Source: a virus | IMG/VR virus record: IMGVR_UViG_3300042259_000159 | Length of the DNA stretch: 64,000 nucleotides | Reading direction: 5' to 3' (one strand) | Program-made: the position numbers and the translations under genes | Shown: in pieces, positions 2,890 to 62,759 of the stretch | How positions within the stretch are numbered: the first letter of the stretch is position 1 | Layout: each line of letters starts with the position of its first letter | The notes under the pieces: generated by a model | Seen by the model: only the letters and a program-made list of their open reading frames with translations | The model's database searches: none | Told to the model about the DNA's origin: nothing

Positions 2890-3714
2890 CTAGATGTCTA
2901 TTAAAGGTTCGTCGATAAACACTGCGTTCATAAAGTCAATGCCATTGACAATAGAGTAGCAGCGATAAAGCTGTCTTTTGAACGAAGCGTTAAAGTCTTC
3001 GTAGGCAAGAGCGAAGGGAAACACTTCCCTCGTAAAGGCTATTGCGTCTTTAGACGCTTCTTTCAGGAGGGCATGAGGGTCTTCAAAAGTACAAGCTTTC
3101 TCCCGAAGAGAGAGGAGAAGGCGGAGCCACTGCTCAATCACTGCGATGTCCACAGTCCCACGCATAGCTCTGAACTCAATCGAACCATACTGAGGCGTAG
3201 CCTTGATGTTCATGCTTGCATAACGAATGTCGTTGTCATCCAAGGCATTAAAGTTCATGCTTTTTGCAAGACCCTCCAGTTTGAAGATGAGTCCTTCCGC
3301 ATCAAAGGAAGAGAGGCAGAAGAGATTGCCTTTACGCGTTTCTCCACAAAACTCCAGAAGAGCGTCTTCATAAAGCAAGTAGAGTATAACAAAGTTGAAC
3401 CACTGGCCCACTGTCAATTTTTGAACGTTAATATGAACATGAACAGATGTTCTGTCCGAGAGGACAACATCCGCTCTCCTGAGATGTTCTCTCAGCATAC
3501 GGAGCCGACGACAAGCCCCCGGGAAGCTGATGGGTTGAGGAAGGACGTATTCCTTCGGGTCATGCCCCCCAATAGGACGAAGAGAAGGTTCGATATGTAC
3601 CTGCCACCCATTCACCTGACGGGGGAGGTCACGACCTTCCACCTCTATTTCAATGCCAATGTCCCCATTCTTAGGGACCAACCCCAGCATATCGGCAATA
3701 GTTATTTCAGCCAT
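2890..3714 (-). CDS. putative amidoligase (glutamine-synthetase-like COOH-NH2 ligase)
   Basis: Track ORF 274 aa. N-terminal GIEIEVEG motif resembles the E-x-E nucleotide/metal site of GS-like amidoligases. Assignment from motif recall only. Confidence 0.45.
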   Translation of the reverse strand: MAEITIADMLGLVPKNGDIGIEIEVEGRDLPRQVNGWQVHIEPSLRPIGGHDPKEYVLPQPISFPGACRRLRMLREHLRRADVVLSDRTSVHVHINVQKLTVGQWFNFVILYLLYEDALLEFCGETRKGNLFCLSSFDAEGLIFKLEGLAKSMNFNALDDNDIRYASMNIKATPQYGSIEFRAMRGTVDIAVIEQWLRLLLSLREKACTFEDPHALLKEASKDAIAFTREVFPFALAYEDFNASFKRQLYRCYSIVNGIDFMNAVFIDEPLIDI

Positions 3715-4268: not shown

Positions 4269-5043
4269 GGGGCACTCCCAGATTGTACTTCTTAATAAGA
4301 GCGACTGCCGAATCTACATCCGAAGTGTTGATGATGTTGGTGATGTCTCCCTCTTCCTCAGCCAAGTCTCTTCCTGCAAGCAAGTCAACAACAGCTTGTC
4401 GGGAAGCGGAGAACACCCAACGCATCAGACGCTCTTCTTTAAGCCAAGCATTGGACAGAGTGCGATATTCCATGCCGTAAGGCTTAACACGAAAAGCCCC
4501 TGCCTTCCCGTAGAGTTCTCTCCTTTTGGTGTCCTTGTCGAACAGAAGAGAAGGCAATCCAAGGTAGAAATCCAGCTGCCGTGCAAGCTGACACGAAGCA
4601 AGGAAAGCTCCGAAGTCGTTCACATCATGCTCCATATAGCCGATATGAACATGCCCAGCAGCAGTGCGGAAGTCTCGATTACCGTCAGGAGAAGGGTTGA
4701 TGTCCTGCGTCCACCCATTGTAGTCGGGGTCACACCCCAATTCAAGAGCGGCAGGAGGCTGAGTAGCCATATACTCCTTGCCAAAATGAGCCACAGGCTC
4801 AATGACAATTTCCTCCTTCACCATACGACGAAGCTGAGCGAATACATGCTCAATGTTGCTGACGAAGGTGTTTTCATCAGCTGCCGGCTCAATGTTAAAC
4901 TCAAGAGCCATACCATCCACCTGTACAGCCCCCTTCTCAACAGGGAAAGGGGCTTCCTTAGTCCCGGGAATGAGGCCGTAGCCGGAGATGAACTTCCCAT
5001 TGTCCTTCACAAACAGTTCGGGGTCGGTGCCAATGTATATCAT
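4252..5043 (-). CDS. hypothetical protein, possible second COOH-NH2 ligase-like enzyme
   Basis: Track ORF 263 aa (MIYIGTDPELFV...AAGHVHIGY). Sits between the amidoligase-like gene and the amidotransferases. Family assignment tentative. Confidence 0.4.
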   Translation of the reverse strand: MIYIGTDPELFVKDNGKFISGYGLIPGTKEAPFPVEKGAVQVDGMALEFNIEPAADENTFVSNIEHVFAQLRRMVKEEIVIEPVAHFGKEYMATQPPAALELGCDPDYNGWTQDINPSPDGNRDFRTAAGHVHIGYMEHDVNDFGAFLASCQLARQLDFYLGLPSLLFDKDTKRRELYGKAGAFRVKPYGMEYRTLSNAWLKEERLMRWVFSASRQAVVDLLAGRDLAEEEGDITNIINTSDVDSAVALIKKYNLGVPHAVEI

Positions 5044-5054
5044 GTTATTCCTCC

Positions 5055-6266
5055 TTAAAAGGGTATATTAGAGTCATACAGGGAGACAAAGTCTTTGTCT
5101 TTCAGGCATTCCAAACAAACAGAATCGTATTCCGAGATGATTGCGATTTTCTCATTCCTCTCATAGAACTTCCCGCACCAGTCGCAGGAGTGGTAAGGGT
5201 GATGCGGGTAGCTTATCTTATACTCAATCTTAGGGGCTTCTTCCTCCTTCTGATTGATGGGAATGATGGAACCCACAGTGAAATACGTCTTCTTGTCGAG
5301 CGTTTGCCCGATGAACAATATCTTTGCCCGAAGGGGGACGCCCACAGGAACATCCGAGTTGCCATATGCGAAGTGACGAGCTTCAATATCCTCTCCAATC
5401 ACCTCACCGAAGTAGTCGACATTCTTCCCATATGTGCTTTCCCTTTTGTGGAACTTCACAGTGGCATACTCATCTTCTCGATAGGTGCGAAGATTCCCCA
5501 CTGCTTTTCGTGTTGCCCTCTCCCAATTATTCCACCCTTGGTGGATGTACGTTGTCTTGACAGGAGGCGTGTACGAGCAAGGAGTGAGCTTCTTGGTAGT
5601 GAGTTTAAGGCCGTTGCTCAAGTTCCACGAGTAGAGAACATTTTCTTTCACTTCGCAAGCTTTCATGCAGGGTATTTTGTTTCTCCAACATGCCGCATGA
5701 ATGAAGAAAGGCTCAGAAGCCCAGAACACCACCTTCTTTTCTTTGTCAAGCATATAGTAGAGAGGCCGCTTATCGTTCCGCAGCATGTTGAGCGTGTCTT
5801 CGTTTTCGTCATACCAGACAAGAGCAGCTGCCCCGCAAAGATTCTGCCAAGTGTCTTCCACACCATGTATGGACATATGGTGGTAGATGTTGGAAGAATC
5901 AACATCGAATTTCTTGTAATCCGCCAGAAGATGTTGGGCTGTAAGTGTTCCGTTATGCACTCCTGTAATGTGCCCATGCTGAAACGGATGAGCGTTTTCC
6001 TCGATAATAGTTCCTTTCGTTGCTGCTCTATTATGCCCTATAAGGCATTTCAACACTTGTGAAAAGATAGGCTGTACTTTACCAATGGTGACAAAGTCAT
6101 AGGCTGCCAGAAGAGATTTTTCGATAGTGACTTTCTTCGTATGGCGATTTACTCCAGCGAGACCCACGGAATCAACTCCGCGTATTTCGTCAAAGATGAG
6201 CATATCCTTGACTGCCTTCTCCTCTTTCGTTGTAATCAGTCCAGCTGCTCCAATAATACCACACAT
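5055..6266 (-). CDS. class II (Ntn-type) glutamine amidotransferase domain protein
   Basis: Track ORF 403 aa. Starts MCGIIG, i.e. Cys immediately after Met as in Ntn amidotransferases. Confidence 0.7.
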   Translation of the reverse strand: MCGIIGAAGLITTKEEKAVKDMLIFDEIRGVDSVGLAGVNRHTKKVTIEKSLLAAYDFVTIGKVQPIFSQVLKCLIGHNRAATKGTIIEENAHPFQHGHITGVHNGTLTAQHLLADYKKFDVDSSNIYHHMSIHGVEDTWQNLCGAAALVWYDENEDTLNMLRNDKRPLYYMLDKEKKVVFWASEPFFIHAACWRNKIPCMKACEVKENVLYSWNLSNGLKLTTKKLTPCSYTPPVKTTYIHQGWNNWERATRKAVGNLRTYREDEYATVKFHKRESTYGKNVDYFGEVIGEDIEARHFAYGNSDVPVGVPLRAKILFIGQTLDKKTYFTVGSIIPINQKEEEAPKIEYKISYPHHPYHSCDWCGKFYERNEKIAIISEYDSVCLECLKDKDFVSLYDSNIPF

Positions 6267-28647: not shown

Positions 28648-30024
28648 ATGGAGATGTTTTTTAGCAACAAAGAGGTTATCAGGGCTTGGGAAAATGTTGT
28701 GAAAAAACTTAACGCCAGCGGTTTTAAAGGTGCCATTGTTGGCGGTGCAGTTAGGGATGTTTTTATGGGAAAGACTCCCACAGATATAGACATTGCTACA
28801 AATGCAACACCAGAGGAGGTTTGTAGCATCTTTAAAGGTGCTAAACTTGTTGGTGAAAGCTTTGGTGTTTGCCGTTGGAATGGCTATGAAATTGCTACTT
28901 ATCGAAACGATGTCCACAACGGTATTGGTGATACTTGTTGCACCGTGAGGTATACAGACGATCTCATTGAAGACCTTAGGCGTAGAGACTTCACAATGAA
29001 TGCTTGTGCATATGAGAGGCATCCTGACGGGACAACGCATTTTGTTATGGCACAGGCAGGTTGTCTGGATGACATCGAGAATAAGCGTCTTGATTTTGTA
29101 GGCAATGCTGAAGATAGAATCAGGGAAGATCCCAACCGCAGCTTCAGAGCATACCGCATGATTTGCAAAACAGGCTTTCTGCCGTCATATGCTACAGCAA
29201 AGATAATATACAACAGAGGTATTGTTGAAAAATATCTTCCGTACATTGCACCTGAGAGGATAGGTAAAGAGCTTATAAAATCTATGGAGGAGCCTTTCTC
29301 TTGGAATTTTTTTAGGTGTCTTTACAGGTCTGGTATTATGTACACTCTCATCCCTGAGATGGCACAGGCTTGGAATATTTGGGGAGGAAAATACCATGCA
29401 GAGTACGTTGGTGAACACCTTATGGCTGTTGGTATGGGTATCTCTGCAAAATTCCCCTTGCTGAGGCTTGCAGGGTATCTGCATGATGTTGGTAAGGGGG
29501 TAACACACGAGGATGGCAGCTTCATCCGGCATGAAAAAGAGGGCGTGCATATTGCGCGGAGGTTTCTTAAAAGCCTTAAGTTCTCTACAAAAGATACAGA
29601 GAAGGTTTGCAATATAATTCGTTGCCATATGCGTAGATTTGGTGAGAATGAAACGCCTGCTACAAACAGGCGAACCCTTGCATATCTTGCAAAACACAAT
29701 GTCTGCACATACGATTTCATCCGTTTGCGGATTGCGGATCACAACGGCAACTTTGCATGCAAGAAGATGAAATTCAGAGATATTAAGTCCCTTGTCAGAT
29801 GTTGGGACACCTATCAGTTTGAAAAACAAGCTGCCCATAGTAGGAAAATGCTTGCCATTAATGGCAGGGATATTATGAAAGAGTTTAATATCCCTCCGTC
29901 AAGACTTGTTGGGGAGATGATTGAATTTGCCCATAATATTGTTCTTGACAATGTTGATAAAAACGAATATAGTATCCTTATCAATGAAATTAAAAAGCGG
30001 TTCGGAGGTAGCAATGGCGAATGA
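28648..30024 (+). CDS. cca: tRNA nucleotidyltransferase (CCA-adding enzyme) with HD domain
   Basis: Track ORF 458 aa with RBS caaggagg. Polymerase-beta head motif GGAVRD...DIDIAT and HD motif LHDVGK. Confidence 0.8.
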   Translation: MEMFFSNKEVIRAWENVVKKLNASGFKGAIVGGAVRDVFMGKTPTDIDIATNATPEEVCSIFKGAKLVGESFGVCRWNGYEIATYRNDVHNGIGDTCCTVRYTDDLIEDLRRRDFTMNACAYERHPDGTTHFVMAQAGCLDDIENKRLDFVGNAEDRIREDPNRSFRAYRMICKTGFLPSYATAKIIYNRGIVEKYLPYIAPERIGKELIKSMEEPFSWNFFRCLYRSGIMYTLIPEMAQAWNIWGGKYHAEYVGEHLMAVGMGISAKFPLLRLAGYLHDVGKGVTHEDGSFIRHEKEGVHIARRFLKSLKFSTKDTEKVCNIIRCHMRRFGENETPATNRRTLAYLAKHNVCTYDFIRLRIADHNGNFACKKMKFRDIKSLVRCWDTYQFEKQAAHSRKMLAINGRDIMKEFNIPPSRLVGEMIEFAHNIVLDNVDKNEYSILINEIKKRFGGSNGE

Positions 30025-52661: not shown

Positions 52662-53258
52662 TTATCCTTCTCTTTCCAGAGCAACATCTATAAGGGATTG
52701 GAACTCCGGCGGGAGGCTGTTATACATTTTTTGTGCCATTTCCCTTATTTCCCACTGTGCGTCTTTTGCCATACGGAGTTTTAGAAAATTGATTAATGCT
52801 CTTAGATTCATTGTTACCATAATTTTTGTGGTAGTTGCGTTCGGGAACACAAAACGTGCATCCTCTTTTTTAACCCCAGCATCAAGCAGGCGATTGTATG
52901 TGTCCCATATAACCTCCATTGTATCTTCATAAAGATCACGAATATAGCCATCCTCGTGCTCTGATATGCTTGGTGGAGTGACATAAGAAGGCTCTTCTGT
53001 CTTTACATACCTTTGACTTGCCTGTGTATATGATGCAATACGGTGTCTTACCTGTTGATGTGTTAGTGCGCGGGATACCCCTGTAATTTCAAAACAAAAA
53101 GCAGAATGCTCCACAACACTTTCGTGTCCTTTCTTAATACACTTTTTAACAAGCGCTGTATCACTCGCACCCCCATTGTCAGAAACACTTTCATAGGGTA
53201 TTCTGGCAGCACGACAAATAGTTGTGTATTTCAAACAATCAACAAGTTCTACTTTCAT
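52662..53258 (-). CDS. thyX: flavin-dependent thymidylate synthase
   Basis: ThyX signature RHRIASYTQASQRY. Start set at MKVELV after AAGGAGG; track ORF extends 7 codons upstream. Confidence 0.85.
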   Translation of the reverse strand: MKVELVDCLKYTTICRAARIPYESVSDNGGASDTALVKKCIKKGHESVVEHSAFCFEITGVSRALTHQQVRHRIASYTQASQRYVKTEEPSYVTPPSISEHEDGYIRDLYEDTMEVIWDTYNRLLDAGVKKEDARFVFPNATTTKIMVTMNLRALINFLKLRMAKDAQWEIREMAQKMYNSLPPEFQSLIDVALEREG

Positions 53259-53422
53259 TACGCCTCCTTTTTTACCCAAGATGTGGGCTTATAATCATTG
53301 CCTATTCGGCAGTTTTTACACTCTACCTTCCTGTGGTGTCTATAGGGGCCACTTGCACAGCTTATGCATGTAAGATTTGTCTCAACATGCCCACGGTTTT
53401 TCCTCTCTACAAAGACATTCAT
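53258..53422 (-). CDS. small zinc-ribbon protein
   Basis: Hand-translated 54 aa ORF (MNVFVERKNRGHVETNLTCISCASGPYRHHRKVECKNCRIG...); its TAA overlaps the thyX ATG. Below the track size cutoff. Confidence 0.35.
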   Translation of the reverse strand: MNVFVERKNRGHVETNLTCISCASGPYRHHRKVECKNCRIGNDYKPTSWVKKEA

Positions 53423-53590
53423 CGTTTCTCCTTTTTGCGTTGATAGGTGAATTTAATATTCCCAACCCTTGCAGGTATAACACTCTTTTCAATAACACGC
53501 CCACATGCCTTTTCAGGAATGGAGAAGGTATCTATAATTTCCCCATTACTATTAAACACCACTATAGTATCCACAAAACCCCCTAAAGGC

Positions 53591-53612
53591 TGAAAAAGCC
53601 GCTTTTAGCGGC
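53591..53612 (-). terminator. rho-independent terminator
   Basis: Minus-sense hairpin gccgctaaaagcggc followed by ttttt, at the 3' end of the phosphoesterase gene. Confidence 0.5.
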
Positions 53613-54579
53613 AAAAATAAATGTCTGGTGAGAAGGTTAGAAGATCTTTTGTATGCACTGAGTATGAGATATCGTTCAAATCCTGTGCTTCGTGTAAAAT
53701 ATCAAACACAAGGAACCCGAAATCTACTGTTCCAGAACATTTCCTCTCTCCGAAAATTGTCTTTGGACCTTGAAGAGATGGACAAGACATCGCCATATAT
53801 TTTGTTGTACTGTTTGCAATGTGGTAGTGAACATGCCCACGGAGAATTACATCGCTTTTAGGCTGCATCTTTTTCTCTTCCCATAGGCGATTCCAGACAT
53901 ATTCTTTCGAAAGCTGTGTTGCCCTCCCGTGAGGGATTCCACTACTTCCAATGGCATGTCTGAGGTCAAAAAGAATCCCATTAATATCTACCCACAACCT
54001 ACCATCAAAAATAGCACCTATCTCTTTAGCTAGAACCTCTTCAAAATCCTCACCACCGGCATATGTATGGTAACCTGTCCCACCAACTAGAAAAATATTC
54101 TTACACGGGATTGAATCGAAGACTTGAACAGCTATATCTACTTGCTCGTTGAGGGATGAGGTTATCAGTCCATTTCCACCATCCTTAGATGCCTTGCCAT
54201 CAATTGCATCGCCTATGTGAAAAAGTGCATCGATATGGCCTAAGGATGAAACCCCTGTAGAGAAAAAGTCCCACATCTCTTCTTGCATAGAGGCAATCTT
54301 CTTTCTTTCCTCTTTGCTTCCTCCTTGAACGTTAAACATCCAGTCTGGAGGTGTCAAACCAACCTTACTTCCGCAGTGGGTATCCGAGATAACCAAAACC
54401 CTTGAGAAATCCCTTTTACACCTTTCCTCCTCTTTTTCCCACTTTGTGAGACCCTTATACTTATCCTTAAGAAAGTCGTGAACAGAAGATTTTGGAACCC
54501 CTGTTGCGGCAGAAATCTGCCTTATAGACTTCCCAGCCTTTTGCATTATAAGAGCAACCTCTTTCTGATATTCCTCCAT
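53605..54579 (-). CDS. calcineurin-like metallophosphoesterase with N-terminal HTH
   Basis: Track ORF 324 aa; metallophosphoesterase motifs DTHCG, GDAIDG, GHVH. Confidence 0.7.
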   Translation of the reverse strand: MEEYQKEVALIMQKAGKSIRQISAATGVPKSSVHDFLKDKYKGLTKWEKEEERCKRDFSRVLVISDTHCGSKVGLTPPDWMFNVQGGSKEERKKIASMQEEMWDFFSTGVSSLGHIDALFHIGDAIDGKASKDGGNGLITSSLNEQVDIAVQVFDSIPCKNIFLVGGTGYHTYAGGEDFEEVLAKEIGAIFDGRLWVDINGILFDLRHAIGSSGIPHGRATQLSKEYVWNRLWEEKKMQPKSDVILRGHVHYHIANSTTKYMAMSCPSLQGPKTIFGERKCSGTVDFGFLVFDILHEAQDLNDISYSVHTKDLLTFSPDIYFCR

Positions 54580-54616
54580 CTAACCTCCTTTACTCCTGTT
54601 TTTGGGAATAGAAATA

Positions 54617-54644
54617 TGGTACTGGCAGCGGGATTCGAACCCAC
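54617..54644 (-). pseudogene. orphan tRNA 3' fragment (T-arm + acceptor 3' strand + CCA)
   Basis: Minus-sense GTGGGTTCGAATCCCGC TGCCAGT A CCA with no matching 5' half nearby; its acceptor 3' strand pairs perfectly with the 5' acceptor strand of the aberrant tRNA at 55246-55323. Confidence 0.4.
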
Positions 54645-54658
54645 ACTGAAGGGGGGAT

Positions 54659-55108
54659 TTACTTATCTCTCTGGTAGTAGTGCTTTGATATTGCACTTCT
54701 TTCCATTTTTTGAATTTTTTTATTCTGAACGTCGGACCCATAACGTCCAGAACACGTTCTGGAACAAAAGGGCCCAGCTTTATTTTTAATGTTTCTCTGT
54801 GTCACCGTTGGCGTAAAAAGAGAATCGCAATATGGACACTTTACTTCTTCCACTCTCACCCTTACCACATCAAGCGAAGCATGGGAGGATCTACACAAAA
54901 CTTGTAAATTTTCAATTTTGTTGTTCAGTGGATTTCTATCAATGTGGTCAACTGTCTCAGATGGATCTAAAACTCTGCCCAGATGCACTTCCATTATAAT
55001 TCTGGAAGCCTGTTTAGCAGTTCTTTTAATTCCATCATATAAAACAATGACCAGTCTACCGTCTTTCCTTAAATATGGCCCATAAATTTTTTTACACTCT
55101 GGGTACAA
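54659..55108 (-). CDS. HNH homing endonuclease inserted in tRNA array
   Basis: HNH core HIDRNPLNNKIENLQVLCRSSH. Track ORF 54659-55192 would overlap tRNA-Leu, so the start is placed at TTG near 55108. Confidence 0.7.
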   Translation of the reverse strand: MYPECKKIYGPYLRKDGRLVIVLYDGIKRTAKQASRIIMEVHLGRVLDPSETVDHIDRNPLNNKIENLQVLCRSSHASLDVVRVRVEEVKCPYCDSLFTPTVTQRNIKNKAGPFCSRTCSGRYGSDVQNKKIQKMERSAISKHYYQRDK

Positions 55109-55122
55109 TTTTTGAATGTGTT

Positions 55123-55206
55123 TGGTAGGAGAAGAGAGATTCGAACTCTCAAGGAATAATCCGTCGAGGCTTAAACTCGATGTGTTTACCATTTCACCAT
55201 TCTCCC
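55123..55206 (-). tRNA. tRNA-Leu (anticodon TAA), type II, CCA encoded
   Basis: Hand-folded cloverleaf: acceptor GGGAGAA/TTCTCCT, anticodon stem TCGAG/CTCGA with loop TTTAAGC, long variable arm, T-arm GAGAG-TTCGAAT-CTCTC. Confidence 0.7.
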
Positions 55207-55245
55207 GTATTTTTTATCTACCATTCCGCCATTCCCGCATTTATT

Positions 55246-55323
55246 TGGTACCCACTGTGAGATTCGAACCCACACTAATCAGTTTCTAAGACTGATGCCT
55301 CTGCCAAGTTGGGCTATACCAGT
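55246..55323 (-). tRNA. aberrant tRNA-like gene (anticodon TAG, type I architecture, poorly paired acceptor stem)
   Basis: Good D-, anticodon (TCAGT-CTTAGAA-ACTGA) and T-arms, but 5' acceptor ACTGGTA mispairs with the adjacent 3' strand AGTGGGT. Confidence 0.4.
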
Positions 55324-55581
55324 ATTATGCTTATTATTTTATTTTGAAAGGCCATATGTATACACATATATATATATACATATATATATGTATAGAGCAA
55401 CCAAAATGGTTAAATAAAAAGGTGTTTTGTGGAGACACCAAACTCCTCCAGTTTTAGTGATCTGGAAACAATAAGCGGCGCAGGTGCTCTTTAAAACACG
55501 TGCTACCAAGCGTATAAATTGTCTAGGGGATTTCACCAAACACATTATGTTATTGGAGGGATCTTTCCCTAGACTCAGTAA

Positions 55582-55654
55582 AGCTCCTGACAGGACTTGA
55601 ACCCGCAACCGGCTGATTACAAATCAGCTGCTCTGCCAGTTGAGCTACAGGAGC
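55582..55654 (-). tRNA. tRNA-Thr (anticodon TGT), no encoded CCA
   Basis: Acceptor GCTCCTG/CAGGAGC, D-arm GCTC...GAGC, anticodon loop TTTGTAA, T-loop TTCAAGT. Confidence 0.7.
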
Positions 55655-55658
55655 AGAA

Positions 55659-55730
55659 CAGAGGGAGAAGGATTCGAACCTTCGAATGACGGGACCAAAA
55701 CCCGTTGCCTTACCGCTTGGCTACCCCTCT
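55659..55730 (-). tRNA. tRNA-Gln (anticodon TTG), no encoded CCA
   Basis: Acceptor AGAGGGG/TCCCTCT, anticodon stem ACGGG/CCCGT with loop TTTTGGT, T-arm GAAGG-TTCGAAT-CCTTC. Confidence 0.7.
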
Positions 55731-55738
55731 AAATTTTT

Positions 55739-55815
55739 TGGCTCCGGCGGCAGGATTTGAACCTACATTCGCAATGGTTAACAGCCATTTGCCTTACCAA
55801 TTCGGCGACACCGGA
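55739..55815 (-). tRNA. tRNA-Asn (anticodon GTT), CCA encoded
   Basis: Acceptor TCCGGTG/CGCCGGA, anticodon stem AATGG/CCATT with loop CTGTTAA, T-arm GTAGG-TTCAAAT-CCTGC. Confidence 0.7.
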
Positions 55816-55860
55816 ATGAACTTTTTATTTGTTATCAGCATTGTTTTGCTTTATTTTAAA

Positions 55861-55939
55861 TGGTCTCGGTGATTAGATTTGAACTAATGATTATTCCTGC
55901 TCCCAAAGCAGGTGCCATACCAAGCTAGGCGACACCGAG
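55861..55939 (-). tRNA. tRNA-Pro (anticodon TGG), CCA encoded
   Basis: Acceptor CTCGGTG/CACCGAG, anticodon stem CCTGC/GCAGG with loop TTTGGGA, T-arm ATTAG-TTCAAAT-CTAAT. Confidence 0.65.
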
Positions 55940-56416
55940 ATCAGGTGTGGTACCAAACTCCACTATGGGCAGAGGTTATAAGAAGGTCCGTACATGATAT
56001 AGACAGATATTCTTCCATAACAGCGGTACGGACGCTGTCTCATTTTTATATCTTTCAGTGTGCTATTACGCCAAAGGGAAATTAAGCCTTACCAGTTACG
56101 GGGTGCCCTTTTACTATCCACAAAGAATTTCAAATCGCGTGCATTCTAAGTATCGGAAAATTCTACAACCACTTAAAGTACACCTCGTTTAAGAGATAGC
56201 GACCTGTGCTTCGTCCCACTCTTTAAAGGATGGCTGCCTCAAAGCCCACCTCCTGAAAAATGCATGAAGGATTATCCCTCCTTCGCTAAATACAACCTAT
56301 CAATTTTAAGGGTTCTTGTCAAGAACATTTTAAGGTTTTTGAAATTTTTGTTGAACGCTGATTTGCTACGCGGGTACAGCGTTCGAAACCTCGATAGCAT
56401 CCTTGCCGTTGGCAAA

Positions 56417-56506
56417 GCTGTCAGGAGCCGCAGGAGGAGAATTGAACTCCTCTGGCATCAACACGCAGTCACCACAACTACATCTACCGTTACGGGTATG
56501 GCTCCC
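56417..56506 (-). other. tRNA-like element (T-arm and acceptor helix, non-canonical D/anticodon region)
   Basis: Minus-sense GGAGCCA...GAGGAG-TTCAATT-CTCCTC...CGGCTCC; lies just outside the right-end hairpin of the tnpB element. Confidence 0.3.
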
Positions 56507-56574
56507 CATCCTAGTCACCTGTTGATACCTTATAGGTTCAGCCCTACCAAGGGCACTGCGGCTTAAGTGGGTTG

Positions 56575-56860
56575 GTTGGTGCAGATTGTGAACGTACCCC
56601 CGCCTATAGAGGCGGAAGCTTCCTGCTTCAGCGAGAACAGCACCAGTAACTCCGAAGAGTTGTGGCGAATTACACTCTCTCCACAGGCGTAAATTCCCGT
56701 GCGACCCACGGTACTTTATGAGTTACGCTAGGCAGATATTCGCCCAGCTTCTTCTCTAATATTTATTGCAGCGTTCTTGTCACGGTTATGATGACTGCCA
56801 CACTTAAGGCAATCCCATTCCCGCACAGACAAGTCTTTGGTATCCTTGTTCTGGTAGCCA
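56575..56860 (-). ncRNA. candidate TnpB guide RNA (omega/reRNA) region at the element right end
   Basis: By analogy with IS200/IS605 TnpB systems the guide RNA overlaps the tnpB 3' end and runs to the right-end hairpin (56600-56615). Not folded or aligned. Confidence 0.3.
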
Positions 56861-57965
56861 CAGACATGGCATAGCTGACTGCTTGGATACCATTTGTCTA
56901 TCTTGATAAGTTGCTTACCCTGCCATGCAAGTTTGTATTTCAGCATACTTGTGAACATGCTCCAGCCGTTGTCGGATATGGATTTACCAAAGTTGAACTT
57001 GCCACCCTTCTTTCGCTTCGCCATGTCCTTTACGCTAATGTCCTCTATGCCAATCACATCATAGCGGTCTGCAAGATAACGAGCTTTCTTATGCAGGAAG
57101 TCGCGGCGTTGATTAGCAATTTTCTCATGGAGTACAGCCAAACGTAGTCTTTGTTTATTCCTATTACGGCTCCCTTTTTGTCTCTTGGAGAGTTTTCTTT
57201 GTGCCTTGATCAATCTCTTTTCGGCTTCCCGTAAGAAATTTGGATAATCGGCGTTGTCCTCATCGGAAGCAACATACATCCCGTGCATAGCAAAATCCAA
57301 TCCAAGAAAATTCTTCGGTATGATGGGAAGTATTTGGTTTTCATACTCCACCAAAATACTAATATAGTATTTTCCTGACGGTGTTTTACTTATGGTTACA
57401 GTCTTTATGGTGCTATTCTCCATCAATGGACGATGCAGACACAGCTTTACCCAACCTATTTTCGGCAGCTTGACTTTGTTTCCCTCGATTCTTACAGAGC
57501 CATGTTGGTTGTTCGTAGAATATGAAGCATGACCCGCTTTCTTCGACTTGAAGCGTGGCTTGCAAAAATGCTTCCTATTGCTCCAAAAGTTGTTATACGC
57601 CTTGTTCAGGTTTATTTGGGCATTGGCGAGAGCAAGGCTGTCAACCTCTTTCAGCCAAGGAAACTCTTTCTTGTACTGTGCAGGTGTGTTGTTCAGCCTC
57701 TCTCCTGTTTCCTTATAGTGATCAAGACGATCTCCAAGCATCTTGTTATAGATGAATCTGGCACTGCCGAAAGTCTTGGCAAACATAATCTTCTGTTCAA
57801 TTGTCGGGTAGAGTCTATATCGGTATGCCTTATTCACTATAATCACCTGCCTTGATTTTCTATGTATTTACGAATTGTCTCAAACGGAGCAATTATCTGG
57901 CTCAACTACTTACGTAAATTCGCTAGACACACCTTCATCCCCCACCTTAGAGGTGGAGGGCTTCT
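56590..57965 (-). mobile_element. IS200/IS605-family insertion element carrying tnpB only
   Basis: tnpB flanked by similar imperfect palindromes: cccgcctatagaggcgg (56600-56615) and ccaccttagaggtgg (57942-57956). No Y1 tnpA. Inserted between tandem tRNA-Leu genes and the rest of the tRNA array. Confidence 0.65.
56728..57846 (-). CDS. tnpB: TnpB (RuvC-like RNA-guided endonuclease, IS605 OrfB family)
   Basis: Track ORF 372 aa; N-terminal YRYRLYPT, RuvC-like region, C-terminal zinc finger CHVCGY...CLKCG. Confidence 0.85.
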   Translation of the reverse strand: MIIVNKAYRYRLYPTIEQKIMFAKTFGSARFIYNKMLGDRLDHYKETGERLNNTPAQYKKEFPWLKEVDSLALANAQINLNKAYNNFWSNRKHFCKPRFKSKKAGHASYSTNNQHGSVRIEGNKVKLPKIGWVKLCLHRPLMENSTIKTVTISKTPSGKYYISILVEYENQILPIIPKNFLGLDFAMHGMYVASDEDNADYPNFLREAEKRLIKAQRKLSKRQKGSRNRNKQRLRLAVLHEKIANQRRDFLHKKARYLADRYDVIGIEDISVKDMAKRKKGGKFNFGKSISDNGWSMFTSMLKYKLAWQGKQLIKIDKWYPSSQLCHVCGYQNKDTKDLSVREWDCLKCGSHHNRDKNAAINIREEAGRISA

Positions 57966-57987
57966 GGCGGGTTAGGTTAAATCCCTT

Positions 57988-58012
57988 GTGTCTACTAATT
58001 CCACCAATCGGG
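57988..58012 (-). pseudogene. truncated tRNA 5' fragment (acceptor + D-arm) adjacent to the tnpB element left end
   Basis: Minus-sense GCCCGATTGGTGGAATTAGTAGACAC duplicates the 5' 26 nt of tRNA-Leu(TAA) at 58023-58109, including the aaagatttt spacer, but has no anticodon or T-arm. Confidence 0.45.
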
Positions 58013-58022
58013 CTAAAATCTT

Positions 58023-58109
58023 TGGTGCCCAATGCAGGACTCGAACCTGCACGCCATTTCAGGCAGGAGGGCTTAAACCTCGTGTGTCTACCAATTCCAC
58101 CAATCGGGC
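58023..58109 (-). tRNA. tRNA-Leu (anticodon TAA), type II, CCA encoded
   Basis: Acceptor GCCCGAT/ATTGGGC, anticodon loop TTTAAGC, long variable arm, T-arm GCAGG-TTCGAGT-CCTGC. Confidence 0.65.
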
Positions 58110-58118
58110 TAAAATCTT

Positions 58119-58202
58119 TGGTGCCTCAGACAGGATTCGAACCTGCACGGATCTCTCCACTTGGTCCTAAGCCAAGCGTGTCTGCCATTCCACCACTGAG
58201 GC
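58119..58202 (-). tRNA. tRNA-Leu (anticodon TAG), type II, CCA encoded
   Basis: Acceptor GCCTCAG/CTGAGGC, anticodon stem CTTGG/CCAAG with loop CTTAGGA, long variable arm, T-arm GCAGG-TTCGAAT-CCTGT. Confidence 0.7.
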
Positions 58203-58229
58203 TGAAATTTTAATTAAAGTTTGACATAC

Positions 58230-58640
58230 TCCCCACGGATAAATCCGGGGGATTCTGGATTCAAACAGCAACGGCGGGTGCAAGCACCCTTCTGTCTGTC
58301 ATTGAGGCAGTCGCCTTAGAACCAGCCGCTGCACCGAACTCGCTACCGCTGGGCGCTCTGCAAGAACACACTCCCAGATATGTATGCCAATAGCAATTTT
58401 TGTCATGTTTCATGTTTACCTCCGCTCGCAGGTGAGCTATTCGTTATATGTCGTAAAATTCATGGCTCGTGTATTTGCACGGGATTACCCCATGCAAAAC
58501 GTGCAGGAAGGCAAGCACAGCCTGACGCACGGCCTCCCTTAATGCCTTTTTTGCTACGGCAAAATTCGCCATCATGTGCTTAAAATAGATCATCATATAA
58601 CCAGTCAATCAACCGGATTTGCTATGCTCTCCGGTTATTT
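58230..58640 (+). other. non-coding region with tmRNA-5'-like motif (candidate structured RNA)
   Basis: Plus-strand GGGGGATTCTGGATTCAAAC (about 58247-58266) resembles the conserved 5' end of tmRNA, but no 3' T-arm/CCA partner was found in the next 400 nt. Confidence 0.25.
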
Positions 58641-58646
58641 CGGTCG

Positions 58647-59057
58647 TTAGCCTTCCATCGCCAGCTTGATTGCCCGGCGAACTTTCCCAAAATCGTGAAT
58701 CGAAAACAGGCATCCGCCGAAATTATACCGGCAGACCATCTCCGCATCCAGCCAGCGCAACACCTCCAGCATTTCAGGGGCGGCTGCAATAAGTTTGGCG
58801 TTGGCCTCCATGATTGGCACGCGTCCTTGCACGCCACGGGCAGAGGTTGCACATACCGGGTTGCCGTTGCAATCCTCTACTATCAACCGGCCTTTTCGGT
58901 CCGGCACAACTCCGGCAGTAACCGACCACGGGCCGGGACTATGCACAGGATAATCTTCCCTGTTGTAGGCTGTTTTCCCATCCGTTATAATTGTCGGCGT
59001 TTCGCTATCTTTGCAAACCTTTCCCCGATATGTATTTCCGTCACCGTAGCTATTCAT
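58647..59057 (-). CDS. hypothetical protein
   Basis: Track ORF 136 aa. Confidence 0.45.
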   Translation of the reverse strand: MNSYGDGNTYRGKVCKDSETPTIITDGKTAYNREDYPVHSPGPWSVTAGVVPDRKGRLIVEDCNGNPVCATSARGVQGRVPIMEANAKLIAAAPEMLEVLRWLDAEMVCRYNFGGCLFSIHDFGKVRRAIKLAMEG

Positions 59058-59284
59058 TGGTGTTATCTCCTTCTTCGGCCATTATTCTTAAAAATTCTTC
59101 AAAGTTGTATGCGGCCTTATTCGTCATCTCTATACACCTCCACTTGCTCATGTGATTGTCGGAAACTTTCGGCAACTTTTTCGGCGACATCTTTTGTCAT
59201 TAGGCCAGTCCTATACCACTCTCCGGCTTGTTCGTTAATCCATCTCCAGTATTTCACTCGATAATTAACATTTTTTGGCATTGT

Positions 59285-59551
59285 CTATCTCCTCCGCAAG
59301 TTGCGCTCTCTGGTCAAGCCACCATTTTTTTCTGACACGTCTTTGTCTCTTTCAATCGTGTAGAGAAGGTTTTCGGATTTGTCTATCAATTCCTGTAATT
59401 GATGATATATTTTCCGGTATTCGTCGTGCGAAATATCCAAAAGTTCCCGCATTCCGTCTCTGGTATTCTTAAACAACAAGCAATCTGCATCACCACGAGA
59501 AAGGCCAAGGTTTGCTTCCATATAATTAAACGGGCAAACAGGCTTTTTCAT
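59285..59551 (-). CDS. hypothetical protein
   Basis: Track ORF 88 aa in a run of small co-directional minus-strand ORFs. Confidence 0.35.
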   Translation of the reverse strand: MKKPVCPFNYMEANLGLSRGDADCLLFKNTRDGMRELLDISHDEYRKIYHQLQELIDKSENLLYTIERDKDVSEKNGGLTRERNLRRR

Positions 59552-62540: not shown

Positions 62541-62759
62541 ACTCGCACCTGCATCAAGAAAGCAAGAAATGATGCTGGGTGCTGATGCCCAAATGACGGT
62601 AATTGGTAGATAACTGCCCTGTACACAGGAAACTGTGTATGTGTATCTCATTAAAACGGGGAACCCTAAGTGTACACGCATAAGGGAATCCCGTGACTAC
62701 GCAAGCCGAAAAAGGAGTAGGCATGAAAAATTTAGGATTTATGGGTTTTGATAAGTGTG

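Follow-up and report, generated by a model that had tools for sequence, protein, structure and literature searches.

Homing endonucleases encoded in phage transfer RNA (tRNA) clusters are already known. SegB of phages T4 and T6, a GIY-YIG enzyme encoded in the tRNA cluster, recognises the T-loop sequence GGTTCRANTCC and cleaves inside tRNA genes, so that the T4 tRNA region is preferentially inherited and co-converted (PMC2330249); in T6, SegB drives the recombination-dependent amplification of a unit consisting of tRNA-Tyr and segB (PMC13096335). Here we analysed a 64,000-nucleotide (nt) stretch of virus DNA (IMG/VR record IMGVR_UViG_3300042259_000159), called the window below and used as the coordinate frame throughout, and studied a locus at 54617-55323 in which an HNH endonuclease gene and a complete tRNA-Leu(UAA) lie between the separated ends of another tRNA gene. 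We consider it probable that this is a free-standing homing-endonuclease cassette living in tRNA genes, which moves into Leu-type tRNA genes by intronless homing and crosses over within conserved tRNA loops. With SegB as precedent, the locus is not a new category; what it adds is a nuclease of another family and another arrangement, in which the nuclease travels with a replacement tRNA and is nested in its wrecked target gene. Full-text literature searches returned no description of this cassette arrangement.

As with segB, a free-standing nuclease gene lies in a phage tRNA array and the segment of tRNA plus nuclease moves as a unit. The window nuclease is, however, HNH_3/I-HmuI-like with a zinc ribbon, whereas SegB is GIY-YIG, and its cleavage activity is putative; the window cassette is nested in its target tRNA gene, flanked by the two halves of that gene, and it has a constant cargo tRNA-Leu(UAA) and occurs in unrelated phage backgrounds. 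The locus also resembles the intronless homing of T4 SegF, SegG and MobE (PMC3984707), in that the endonuclease gene is missing from a close relative; its gain may also have replaced the adjacent sequence, as would fit a double-strand break repaired from a donor. The classic cases involve long homologous flanks and the target survives, whereas here the apparent tRNA homology is about 10-29 nt, the target is destroyed and a substitute gene is delivered.

All features of the locus are on the minus strand unless marked. In minus-strand order they are the aberrant tRNA, a tRNA 5' fragment, the cargo tRNA-Leu(UAA), the HNH_3 open reading frame (ORF) and the orphan 3' fragment, as follows.

55323-55246, minus: aberrant chimeric tRNA, ACTGGTA TA GCCC-AACTTGGCAG-AGGC A TCAGT-CTTAGAA-ACTGA TTAGT GTGGG-TTCGAAT-CTCAC AGTGGGT A CCA
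55295-55323, minus: 5' part of resident tRNA X (acceptor 5' strand ACTGGTA, U8-A9, D arm, position 26, anticodon-stem base 1)
55246-55294, minus: putative donor-derived part of the chimera, tRNA Y (anticodon arm with UAG at 55288-55286, variable loop TTAGT, T arm GTGGG/CTCAC, 3' acceptor strand AGTGGGT, A, CCA)
Between the aberrant tRNA and the relic 5' fragment, minus: spacer AATAAAT
55216-55238, minus: relic tRNA-Leu-like 5' fragment GCGGGAATGGCGGAATGGTAGAT, that is GCGGGAA-TG-GCGGAATGGTAGAT, read directly
Between the relic 5' fragment and the cargo tRNA, minus: spacer of 9 nt
55123-55206, minus: cargo, a complete class II tRNA-Leu(UAA) (ARAGORN; Infernal 57.3 bits)
Between the cargo tRNA and the HNH_3 ORF, minus: spacer of 14 nt
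54659-55108, minus: HNH_3 (I-HmuI-like) endonuclease gene, 149 codons, TTG start at 55108
Between the HNH_3 ORF and the orphan fragment, minus: gap of 8-11 nt
54617-54650, minus: orphan, the displaced 3' end of tRNA X, (TTC)AGT GTGGG-TTCGAAT-CCCGC TGCCAGT A CCA, where (TTC)AGT is a variable-loop remnant
54632-54647, plus: downstream copy of the 16-nt direct repeat GATTCGAACCCACACT, covering variable loop, T stem and T loop; putative right-hand crossover zone
55261-55276, plus: upstream copy of the same repeat, within the chimeric tRNA
54579: start of a calcineurin-like phosphoesterase gene, the next gene after the orphan fragment

The tRNA at 55323-55246 was confirmed on direct reading to have good D, anticodon (UAG) and T arms, as the original prediction, made from the sequence alone, had described. 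Its acceptor stem is badly degraded: the 5' strand ACTGGTA (55323-55317) and its own 3' strand AGTGGGT form two Watson-Crick and three G-U pairs with two mismatches, so that the earlier statement that they do not pair was slightly overstated. The strand AGTGGGT would require the 5' strand ACCCACT, which is absent. Between ACTGGTA and the TGCCAGT strand of the orphan, on the other hand, pairing is complete as predicted (7/7; 6 Watson-Crick and 1 G-U). None of the tools rated 55246-55323 as a normal tRNA whose acceptor stem is paired. ARAGORN reported only a 69-nt truncated version (55246-55314), and Infernal reached 37.8 bits only with the D arm deleted and two non-canonical pairs allowed in the acceptor stem, compared with 48-66 bits for the neighbouring tRNAs; this D-arm-less fold was rejected as weak (z = -0.28), with a mismatched stem. 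In the minimum-energy fold the CCA end is paired with UGGUAU. The gene thus lacks the canonical combination of a seven-pair acceptor stem and three arms, and the chimeric tRNA is presumably dead. Pfam confirmed the HNH gene, and ARAGORN and Infernal the complete tRNA-Leu(UAA), between the two copies of GATTCGAACCCACACT, of which there are exactly two in the window and none in 100 shuffles. The repeat sequence is conserved across this tRNA family; judged from its composition, it is a patch of recombination homology, mostly variable-loop and T-arm sequence of the tRNA family, and not a target-site duplication.

The window itself is part of IMG/VR contig 3300042267_000152. The history of the locus was read from a sister contig, L003 (IMG/VR 3300036466_000329; L-numbers denote the metagenomic contigs compared with the window), whose tRNA array and phosphoesterase gene are 92-97% identical to those of the window. 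The corresponding position in L003 is taken up by a single intact 79-nt tRNA (4937-5015; ARAGORN; Infernal 59.2 bits), with neither the HNH gene nor the extra tRNA-Leu, a presence/absence polymorphism at the same locus between close relatives. The two sequences are identical from more than 140 nt upstream, bar a 2-nt indel in a TA repeat, through tRNA nt 29. The anticodon arm and variable loop are then unrelated, reading TAGCA-CTTAAAA-TGCTA AAAGGT (UAA) in L003 and TCAGT-CTTAGAA-ACTGA TTAGT (UAG) in the window. From the T arm to the CCA it is the orphan fragment that again matches L003, apart from two A-to-G differences, each of which results in a G-U pair. Because L003 joins both ends in one intact tRNA, the orphan (54617-54647) is the 3' end of the gene that starts at 55323. 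The chimera from its anticodon arm through its 3' end is completely different from L003 and fits an imported tract, for which no donor was found; the aberrant tRNA is most simply read as a chimera of resident tRNA X (first 29 nt) and a donor tRNA Y (the rest). A deletion between the repeats would leave a UAG tRNA and not the L003 sequence, so L003 is not merely a cassette-loss derivative. The intact L003 allele, together with recurrence of the insert in four unrelated contexts, upholds the proposal that a homing-endonuclease-linked insertion split a tRNA gene. The cassette does lie between the tRNA halves as proposed, but the imported DNA probably begins in the anticodon stem of the aberrant tRNA (~55294), not in the T loop. 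The locus sequence is 100% identical in separately assembled contigs of three other samples (L064-L066), and is therefore not an assembly artefact.

The L003 tRNA at 4937-5015 is one of a family of phage tRNAs that carry leucine anticodons with a short variable loop of about 5 nt in place of the long variable arm of bacterial tRNA-Leu. Other members are at L001 948-1025 and 1527-1603, L059 925-1000 and 1178-1252, and L060 3383-3457 and 3946-4020. Their anticodons are UAG, UAA, CAA and GAG, they have the common D arm TAGCCCAACTTGGCAGAGGCA, and an eight-sequence alignment contains compensatory changes at 17/21 pairs. Felix O1-like phages have the same short-variable-arm tRNA(UAG) type, annotated as tRNA-Leu. 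In the unrelated metagenomic tRNA array of L060 (~3220-3385), a different HNH ORF ends a few nt before the 5' end of a short-variable-arm tRNA(UAG), a further case of a nuclease gene adjoining a tRNA.

Homologues of the HNH protein at 82-95% identity were found by protein search, and their contigs match the window across the cassette only, without flanks (blastn).

L067, L068, L069: window 55237-54614, 90% nucleotide identity
L061-L063: window 55220-54624, 82.6% nucleotide identity
L074: window 55223-54927, 92% nucleotide identity, first half only

The mobile unit is about 0.62 kb long (window ~54614-55237), bracketed on the left by a D-loop end, ..GGTAGA, and on the right by a T loop, GGTTCGAnTC. 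Copies occur in assemblies of other projects and the cassette has spread into unrelated genomes (L061-63, L067-69, L074), with different gene neighbours in each context: T4 gp13/gp15-like genes in L061, tRNA-Gly and tRNA-Arg in L067, tRNA-Met in L069, and tRNA-Trp and tRNA-Pro in L074. Three complete copies have the same order, namely a tRNA 5' fragment, a 10-18 nt AT-rich spacer, tRNA-Leu(UAA), the HNH gene and, about 11 nt after it, a tRNA 3' fragment ending in ACCA. The acceptor strands of their outer halves are ACGGGTA/TACCCGT in L067 (7 Watson-Crick pairs), CGGGGTA/TACCCCG in L061 (7 Watson-Crick) and GCCCGAG/CTTGGGC in L069 (6 Watson-Crick and 1 G-U); non-cognate combinations of 5' and 3' halves pair at 1-6 positions. 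The outer halves differ between contexts yet pair within each, so each copy sits in the remains of a different tRNA gene. Every 5' fragment ends 1-2 nt past the D-loop GGTAGA, and every 3' fragment starts at or within the T arm; the anticodon arm of the target is wholly missing. The T stem of L067 is mismatched, with a 5' strand (GCCGG) that resembles ACCGG of L069 and does not fit the 3' strand CTCTC, which indicates a crossover inside the T loop. L074 is a decaying copy: its HNH gene breaks off behind the DHIDRNP motif, and its fragments no longer pair. The L067 T-stem mismatch and the L074 decay speak for outer halves that are relics and against a structure that still works. Exact-match scans with the orphan 3' end, the donor-type (Y) 3' end and the cargo tRNA found this contig alone in IMG/VR and had no match among GTDB genomes, and in the GenBank phage records the locus had generic tRNA matches but no close relative.

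A second tRNA 5' fragment in the window, GCGGGAATGGCGGAATGGTAGAT (55238-55216), had been overlooked in the original prediction. It occupies the same position as the 5' fragments in L067, L069, L061 and L074, and its acceptor strand GCGGGAA... is complementary to neither of the two 3' strands there. The most satisfactory explanation is that it is a remnant of the cassette's previous host tRNA, copied along with the larger tract of Y and cassette.

The HNH_3 ORF matches Pfam PF13392 at 38.5 bits (cut-off 24.8; 8.8e-10) and a PHROG HNH endonuclease at 2e-20. The catalytic residues D54, H55, N67 and H76 are conserved in a 26-sequence family alignment, and the window protein holds all residues that are invariant there, including the HNH motif and a C-terminal four-cysteine zinc ribbon. 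Pairwise ratios of nonsynonymous to synonymous divergence (dN/dS) are 0.12-0.16 at dS 0.28-0.90; by this measure the gene is under purifying selection. A single-sequence search of solved structures (PDB) with the HNH protein gave no match. The family profile matched I-HmuI (1u3e) marginally (E=0.006) and also eL24/zf-FCS-type zinc ribbons. I-HmuI is an intron-encoded HNH nicking endonuclease of Bacillus phage SPO1; its N-terminal beta-hairpin region and HNH motif align weakly with the family profile, whereas at the C-terminus the window protein has the four-cysteine zinc ribbon (zf-FCS/eL24-like) and I-HmuI has helical domains.

The HNH frame is open back through the cargo tRNA (55123-55192) to an ATG in the cargo D loop, and GGGAG of the cargo acceptor lies 9 nt upstream of this ATG. 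Gene callers report a 177-amino-acid HNH protein in several assemblies. This longer form is probably an annotation artefact; homologues begin about 9 residues before a GPY motif. Such loci are easily mis-annotated, since finders label the chimera as tRNA-Leu and run the HNH ORF on across the cargo tRNA.

More distant relatives of the HNH protein point to its preferred surroundings. In L070/L071 and L072 (49-51% identical), the HNH ORF lies in an intervening sequence that splits a tRNA-Leu(UAA). The site is between U34 and A35 (CTT^AAAA), and the exons rebuild a full class II tRNA; the L072 sequence after the ORF matches Rfam Intron_gpI at 45.6 bits (E=2.6e-10; permissive scan, 801 nt). In L073 and L075 (51-53%), the HNH gene stands beside tRNA-Leu genes and adjoins an orphan 3' or 5' tRNA fragment. 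Because the introns of L070-L072 split tRNA-Leu(UAA) and the genes of L073 and L075 adjoin tRNA-Leu, the HNH family is linked to Leu-tRNA genes. If intron homing is taken as a guide, the DNA that the enzyme recognises probably lies at or close to the anticodon region. Although the window thus has HNH homologues, about 50% identical, in tRNA-Leu(UAA) group I introns, it differs from these introns in lacking a ribozyme core and in having its insert outside the anticodon loop; its tRNA is not restored by splicing, and a second, complete tRNA travels with the nuclease.

The HNH-encoding introns span 2481-3182 in L072 and about 1007-1682 in L070. Both contigs are phage-like, and L072 has a T4 baseplate gene and tRNA arrays. 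According to a 2014 review, all phage group I introns then known were in protein-coding genes (PMC3984707).

The cargo tRNA is constant in its body. Positions 8-65 are identical in four contexts, despite a dS of up to 0.9 in the neighbouring HNH ORF, and the changes are limited to acceptor pairs 4, 6 and 7, all of them compensatory (GGGAGAA/TTCTCCT, GGGGGAG/CTCCCCT and GGGAGTG/CACTCCT). The substitution patterns demonstrate that the nuclease gene and the cargo tRNA are both under selection. The anticodon loop of X in L003 is CTTAAAA, as at the intron homing sites of L070 and L072, and that of both the cargo and a resident class II tRNA-Leu(UAA) is TTTAAGC. This suggests, as an inference only, that X was a sensitive target and the TTTAAGC tRNAs are resistant copies. 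The cargo tRNA-Leu(UAA) would make up for the lost tRNA with the UAA anticodon.

In the homing reading, the HNH enzyme would, during co-infection, cut a Leu-type tRNA gene in a cassette-free genome, and the break would be resected and then repaired from a cassette-bearing genome, with tRNA sequence on both sides supplying the homology. In the window this homology would have consisted, on the left, of 29 nt of D arm common to both tRNAs and, on the right, of a 16-17 nt variable-loop/T-arm block; in the other contexts just ~10 nt of D loop and of T loop would be in common. The recipient would have been the short-variable-arm tRNA X (UAA in L003), and the donor phage would have supplied the cassette plus the 3' two-thirds of an upstream tRNA Y (UAG), with the left crossover in the D arm of X and Y and the right one in the T arm. 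The target would lose its anticodon arm while the cassette delivers tRNA-Leu(UAA). The insertion polymorphism, the recurrence between matching tRNA halves, the junction positions and the signs of selection are demonstrated features of the locus; that the HNH protein cuts Leu-type tRNA genes and thereby triggers repair that copies the cassette is what we infer.

Nuclease-independent recombination seems to us unlikely; here the phage's own system would have made the chimera, the fragments and the duplication through unequal or illegitimate exchange at conserved D- and T-loop sequences, between tRNA arrays that are neighbours or co-infecting, with the HNH gene as a passenger. It would account for junctions that fall in sequences common to many tRNAs; tRNA arrays are repeat-rich by nature, and cleavage by the HNH protein is putative. 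Yet the tRNA-Leu and HNH unit lies between tRNA fragments in five unrelated contexts, and besides the window three of these have cognate outer halves. The HNH gene is under purifying selection, and introns of tRNA-Leu genes encode its relatives, as is classic for homing. Recombination of the T6 tRNA segment, moreover, required catalytically active SegB (PMC13096335). An integrase-type element at a tRNA 3' end, with the repeat as its attachment site, or a mis-joining of similar tRNA genes is hardly credible, even though tRNA 3' ends with T-loop repeats are classic attachment sites and metagenome assemblers can mis-join repeats. No integrase or recombinase lies in or next to the 0.6-kb insert, and the element-proximal repeat copy rebuilds a defective acceptor stem, whereas attachment sites normally restore a paired tRNA; a tRNA-targeting element with attachment-site duplication was rejected on these two grounds. 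Against mis-joining, the sequence is identical in four independent assemblies and the cassette is also present in assemblies of other projects.

It is very improbable, too, that the interrupted tRNA is functional, with the ~630-nt insert spliced out, or the halves joined via ACTGGTA/TGCCAGT, to give a tRNA(UAG) with the 3' end at 54617. The perfect long-range acceptor pairing would fit such a tRNA, as would the two orphan substitutions relative to L003, both of which keep pairing as G-U, the cloverleaf fold of the reconstructed molecule and the intron-encoded HNH relatives. A permissive Rfam scan of 53000-59500, however, found no group I or II intron, and there is no room for a ribozyme core, with 11 nt from the ORF stop to the 3' fragment and a whole tRNA before the ORF. 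The would-be 5' exon continues into a complete T arm, 3' strand and CCA, and in the other contexts the outer tRNA is without an anticodon arm and the L067 T stem is mismatched. We know of no bulge-helix-bulge splicing in bacteria, which also counts against splicing. An intron in the window was rejected for lack of a ribozyme core and because the interruption spans the D arm/anticodon stem to the T arm, not the anticodon loop; a functional outer split tRNA was rejected on the L067 T-stem mismatch, the decayed fragments of L074 and the unpaired relic 5' fragment of the window.

Several points weigh against homing of the cassette into Leu-type tRNA genes. The cleavage activity of the HNH protein and any recognition site for it are putative, and the start of the ORF is weak (TTG, with no obvious ribosome-binding site). 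The comparison at the locus depends on one sister contig and the change in the anticodon arm is unpolarised, so that X might have been UAG here and L003 might have changed. Exact-match scans of IMG/VR and GTDB found no donor with an intact tRNA Y beside the cassette. All relatives are metagenomic contigs, several of them shorter than 2 kb. Homologues at 40-46% identity (18 IMG/VR loci, some on contigs of more than 250 kb) are free-standing, 0.3-3 kb from tRNA arrays, and are without adjacent tRNA fragments; nesting in a tRNA gene is for this reason specific to one clade.

A bolder extension of the homing reading, which we put forward tentatively and regard as somewhat doubtful, is that the cassette is a self-compensating invader, in which the HNH protein cuts Leu-type tRNA genes, the D- and T-loop sequences serve as portable homology arms, and the cleavage-resistant cargo replaces the lost function. 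Insertion would then be nearly neutral, or useful against tRNA-targeting defences, the element could cross between unrelated phages, and the relic fragments would record its successive hosts. In any event, the cassette, with its complete replacement tRNA and its place in the wrecked target gene, appears to require no recombination homology beyond the universally conserved tRNA loops. If this is so, it would explain the origin of chimeric tRNAs and orphan fragments in phage tRNA arrays, offer a route for tRNA gene transfer between unrelated phages, and provide a clear, testable case of a selfish element that pays for its own damage. In a recent study, phage tRNA-cluster homing endonucleases reportedly reshape tRNA gene content under bacterial-defence pressure.

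A different kind of element also interrupts tRNA-Leu(UAA) genes in these phages, namely a TnpB (OrfB_IS605) element at 56588-58109 (minus) in the window and at 1881-3356 in L003. The L003 element splits a class II gene in the anticodon loop after TTTAA, with the 5' half at 1881-1917 and the 3' half at 3306-3356. The window site has an intact copy (58109-58023), after it a mutated duplicate of the 5' half (58013-57977) and then the element; the 3' half is gone. Beside the right end of the element, the expected guide position, lies the tRNA 3' half in L003 and unrelated DNA in the window. Just downstream of the TnpB ORF, 56620-56687 (minus) gave a sub-threshold Rfam match to RAGATH-18 (27 bits, E=0.08), which is probably part of the omega RNA of the element.

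The contig belongs to a phage-like genome of roughly 92 kb, whose primase/helicase shares 40-45% identity with the enzymes of Proteobacteria phages 90-140 kb in size, and which also encodes ThyX, NrdD and a CCA-adding enzyme. The last is a tRNA nucleotidyltransferase with an HD domain at 28648-30024 (plus; PHROG 2.9e-56; Pfam PolyA_pol, HD and tRNA_NucTran2_2), and may play a part in repairing or maturing tRNAs in this genome, which has a tRNA array. A promoter and terminator scan gave no signal above chance, no second HNH copy was found in the window, and neither a T-loop-like hairpin (56439-56447) nor a D-loop-like string at 62601 could be resolved as a tRNA relic. Directly upstream of the chimeric tRNA, 55333-55400 is a (TA/TG)-rich, near-palindromic simple repeat, kept in L003 except for a 2-nt indel and the source of spurious Rfam microRNA matches. 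The space between the intact tRNA of L003 and its phosphoesterase gene includes about 960 bp (5027-5992) that are missing from the window and encode a PAPS-reductase-like protein in two overlapping ORFs, apparently via a frameshift; this segment is a further indel between the sister phages at the same spot.

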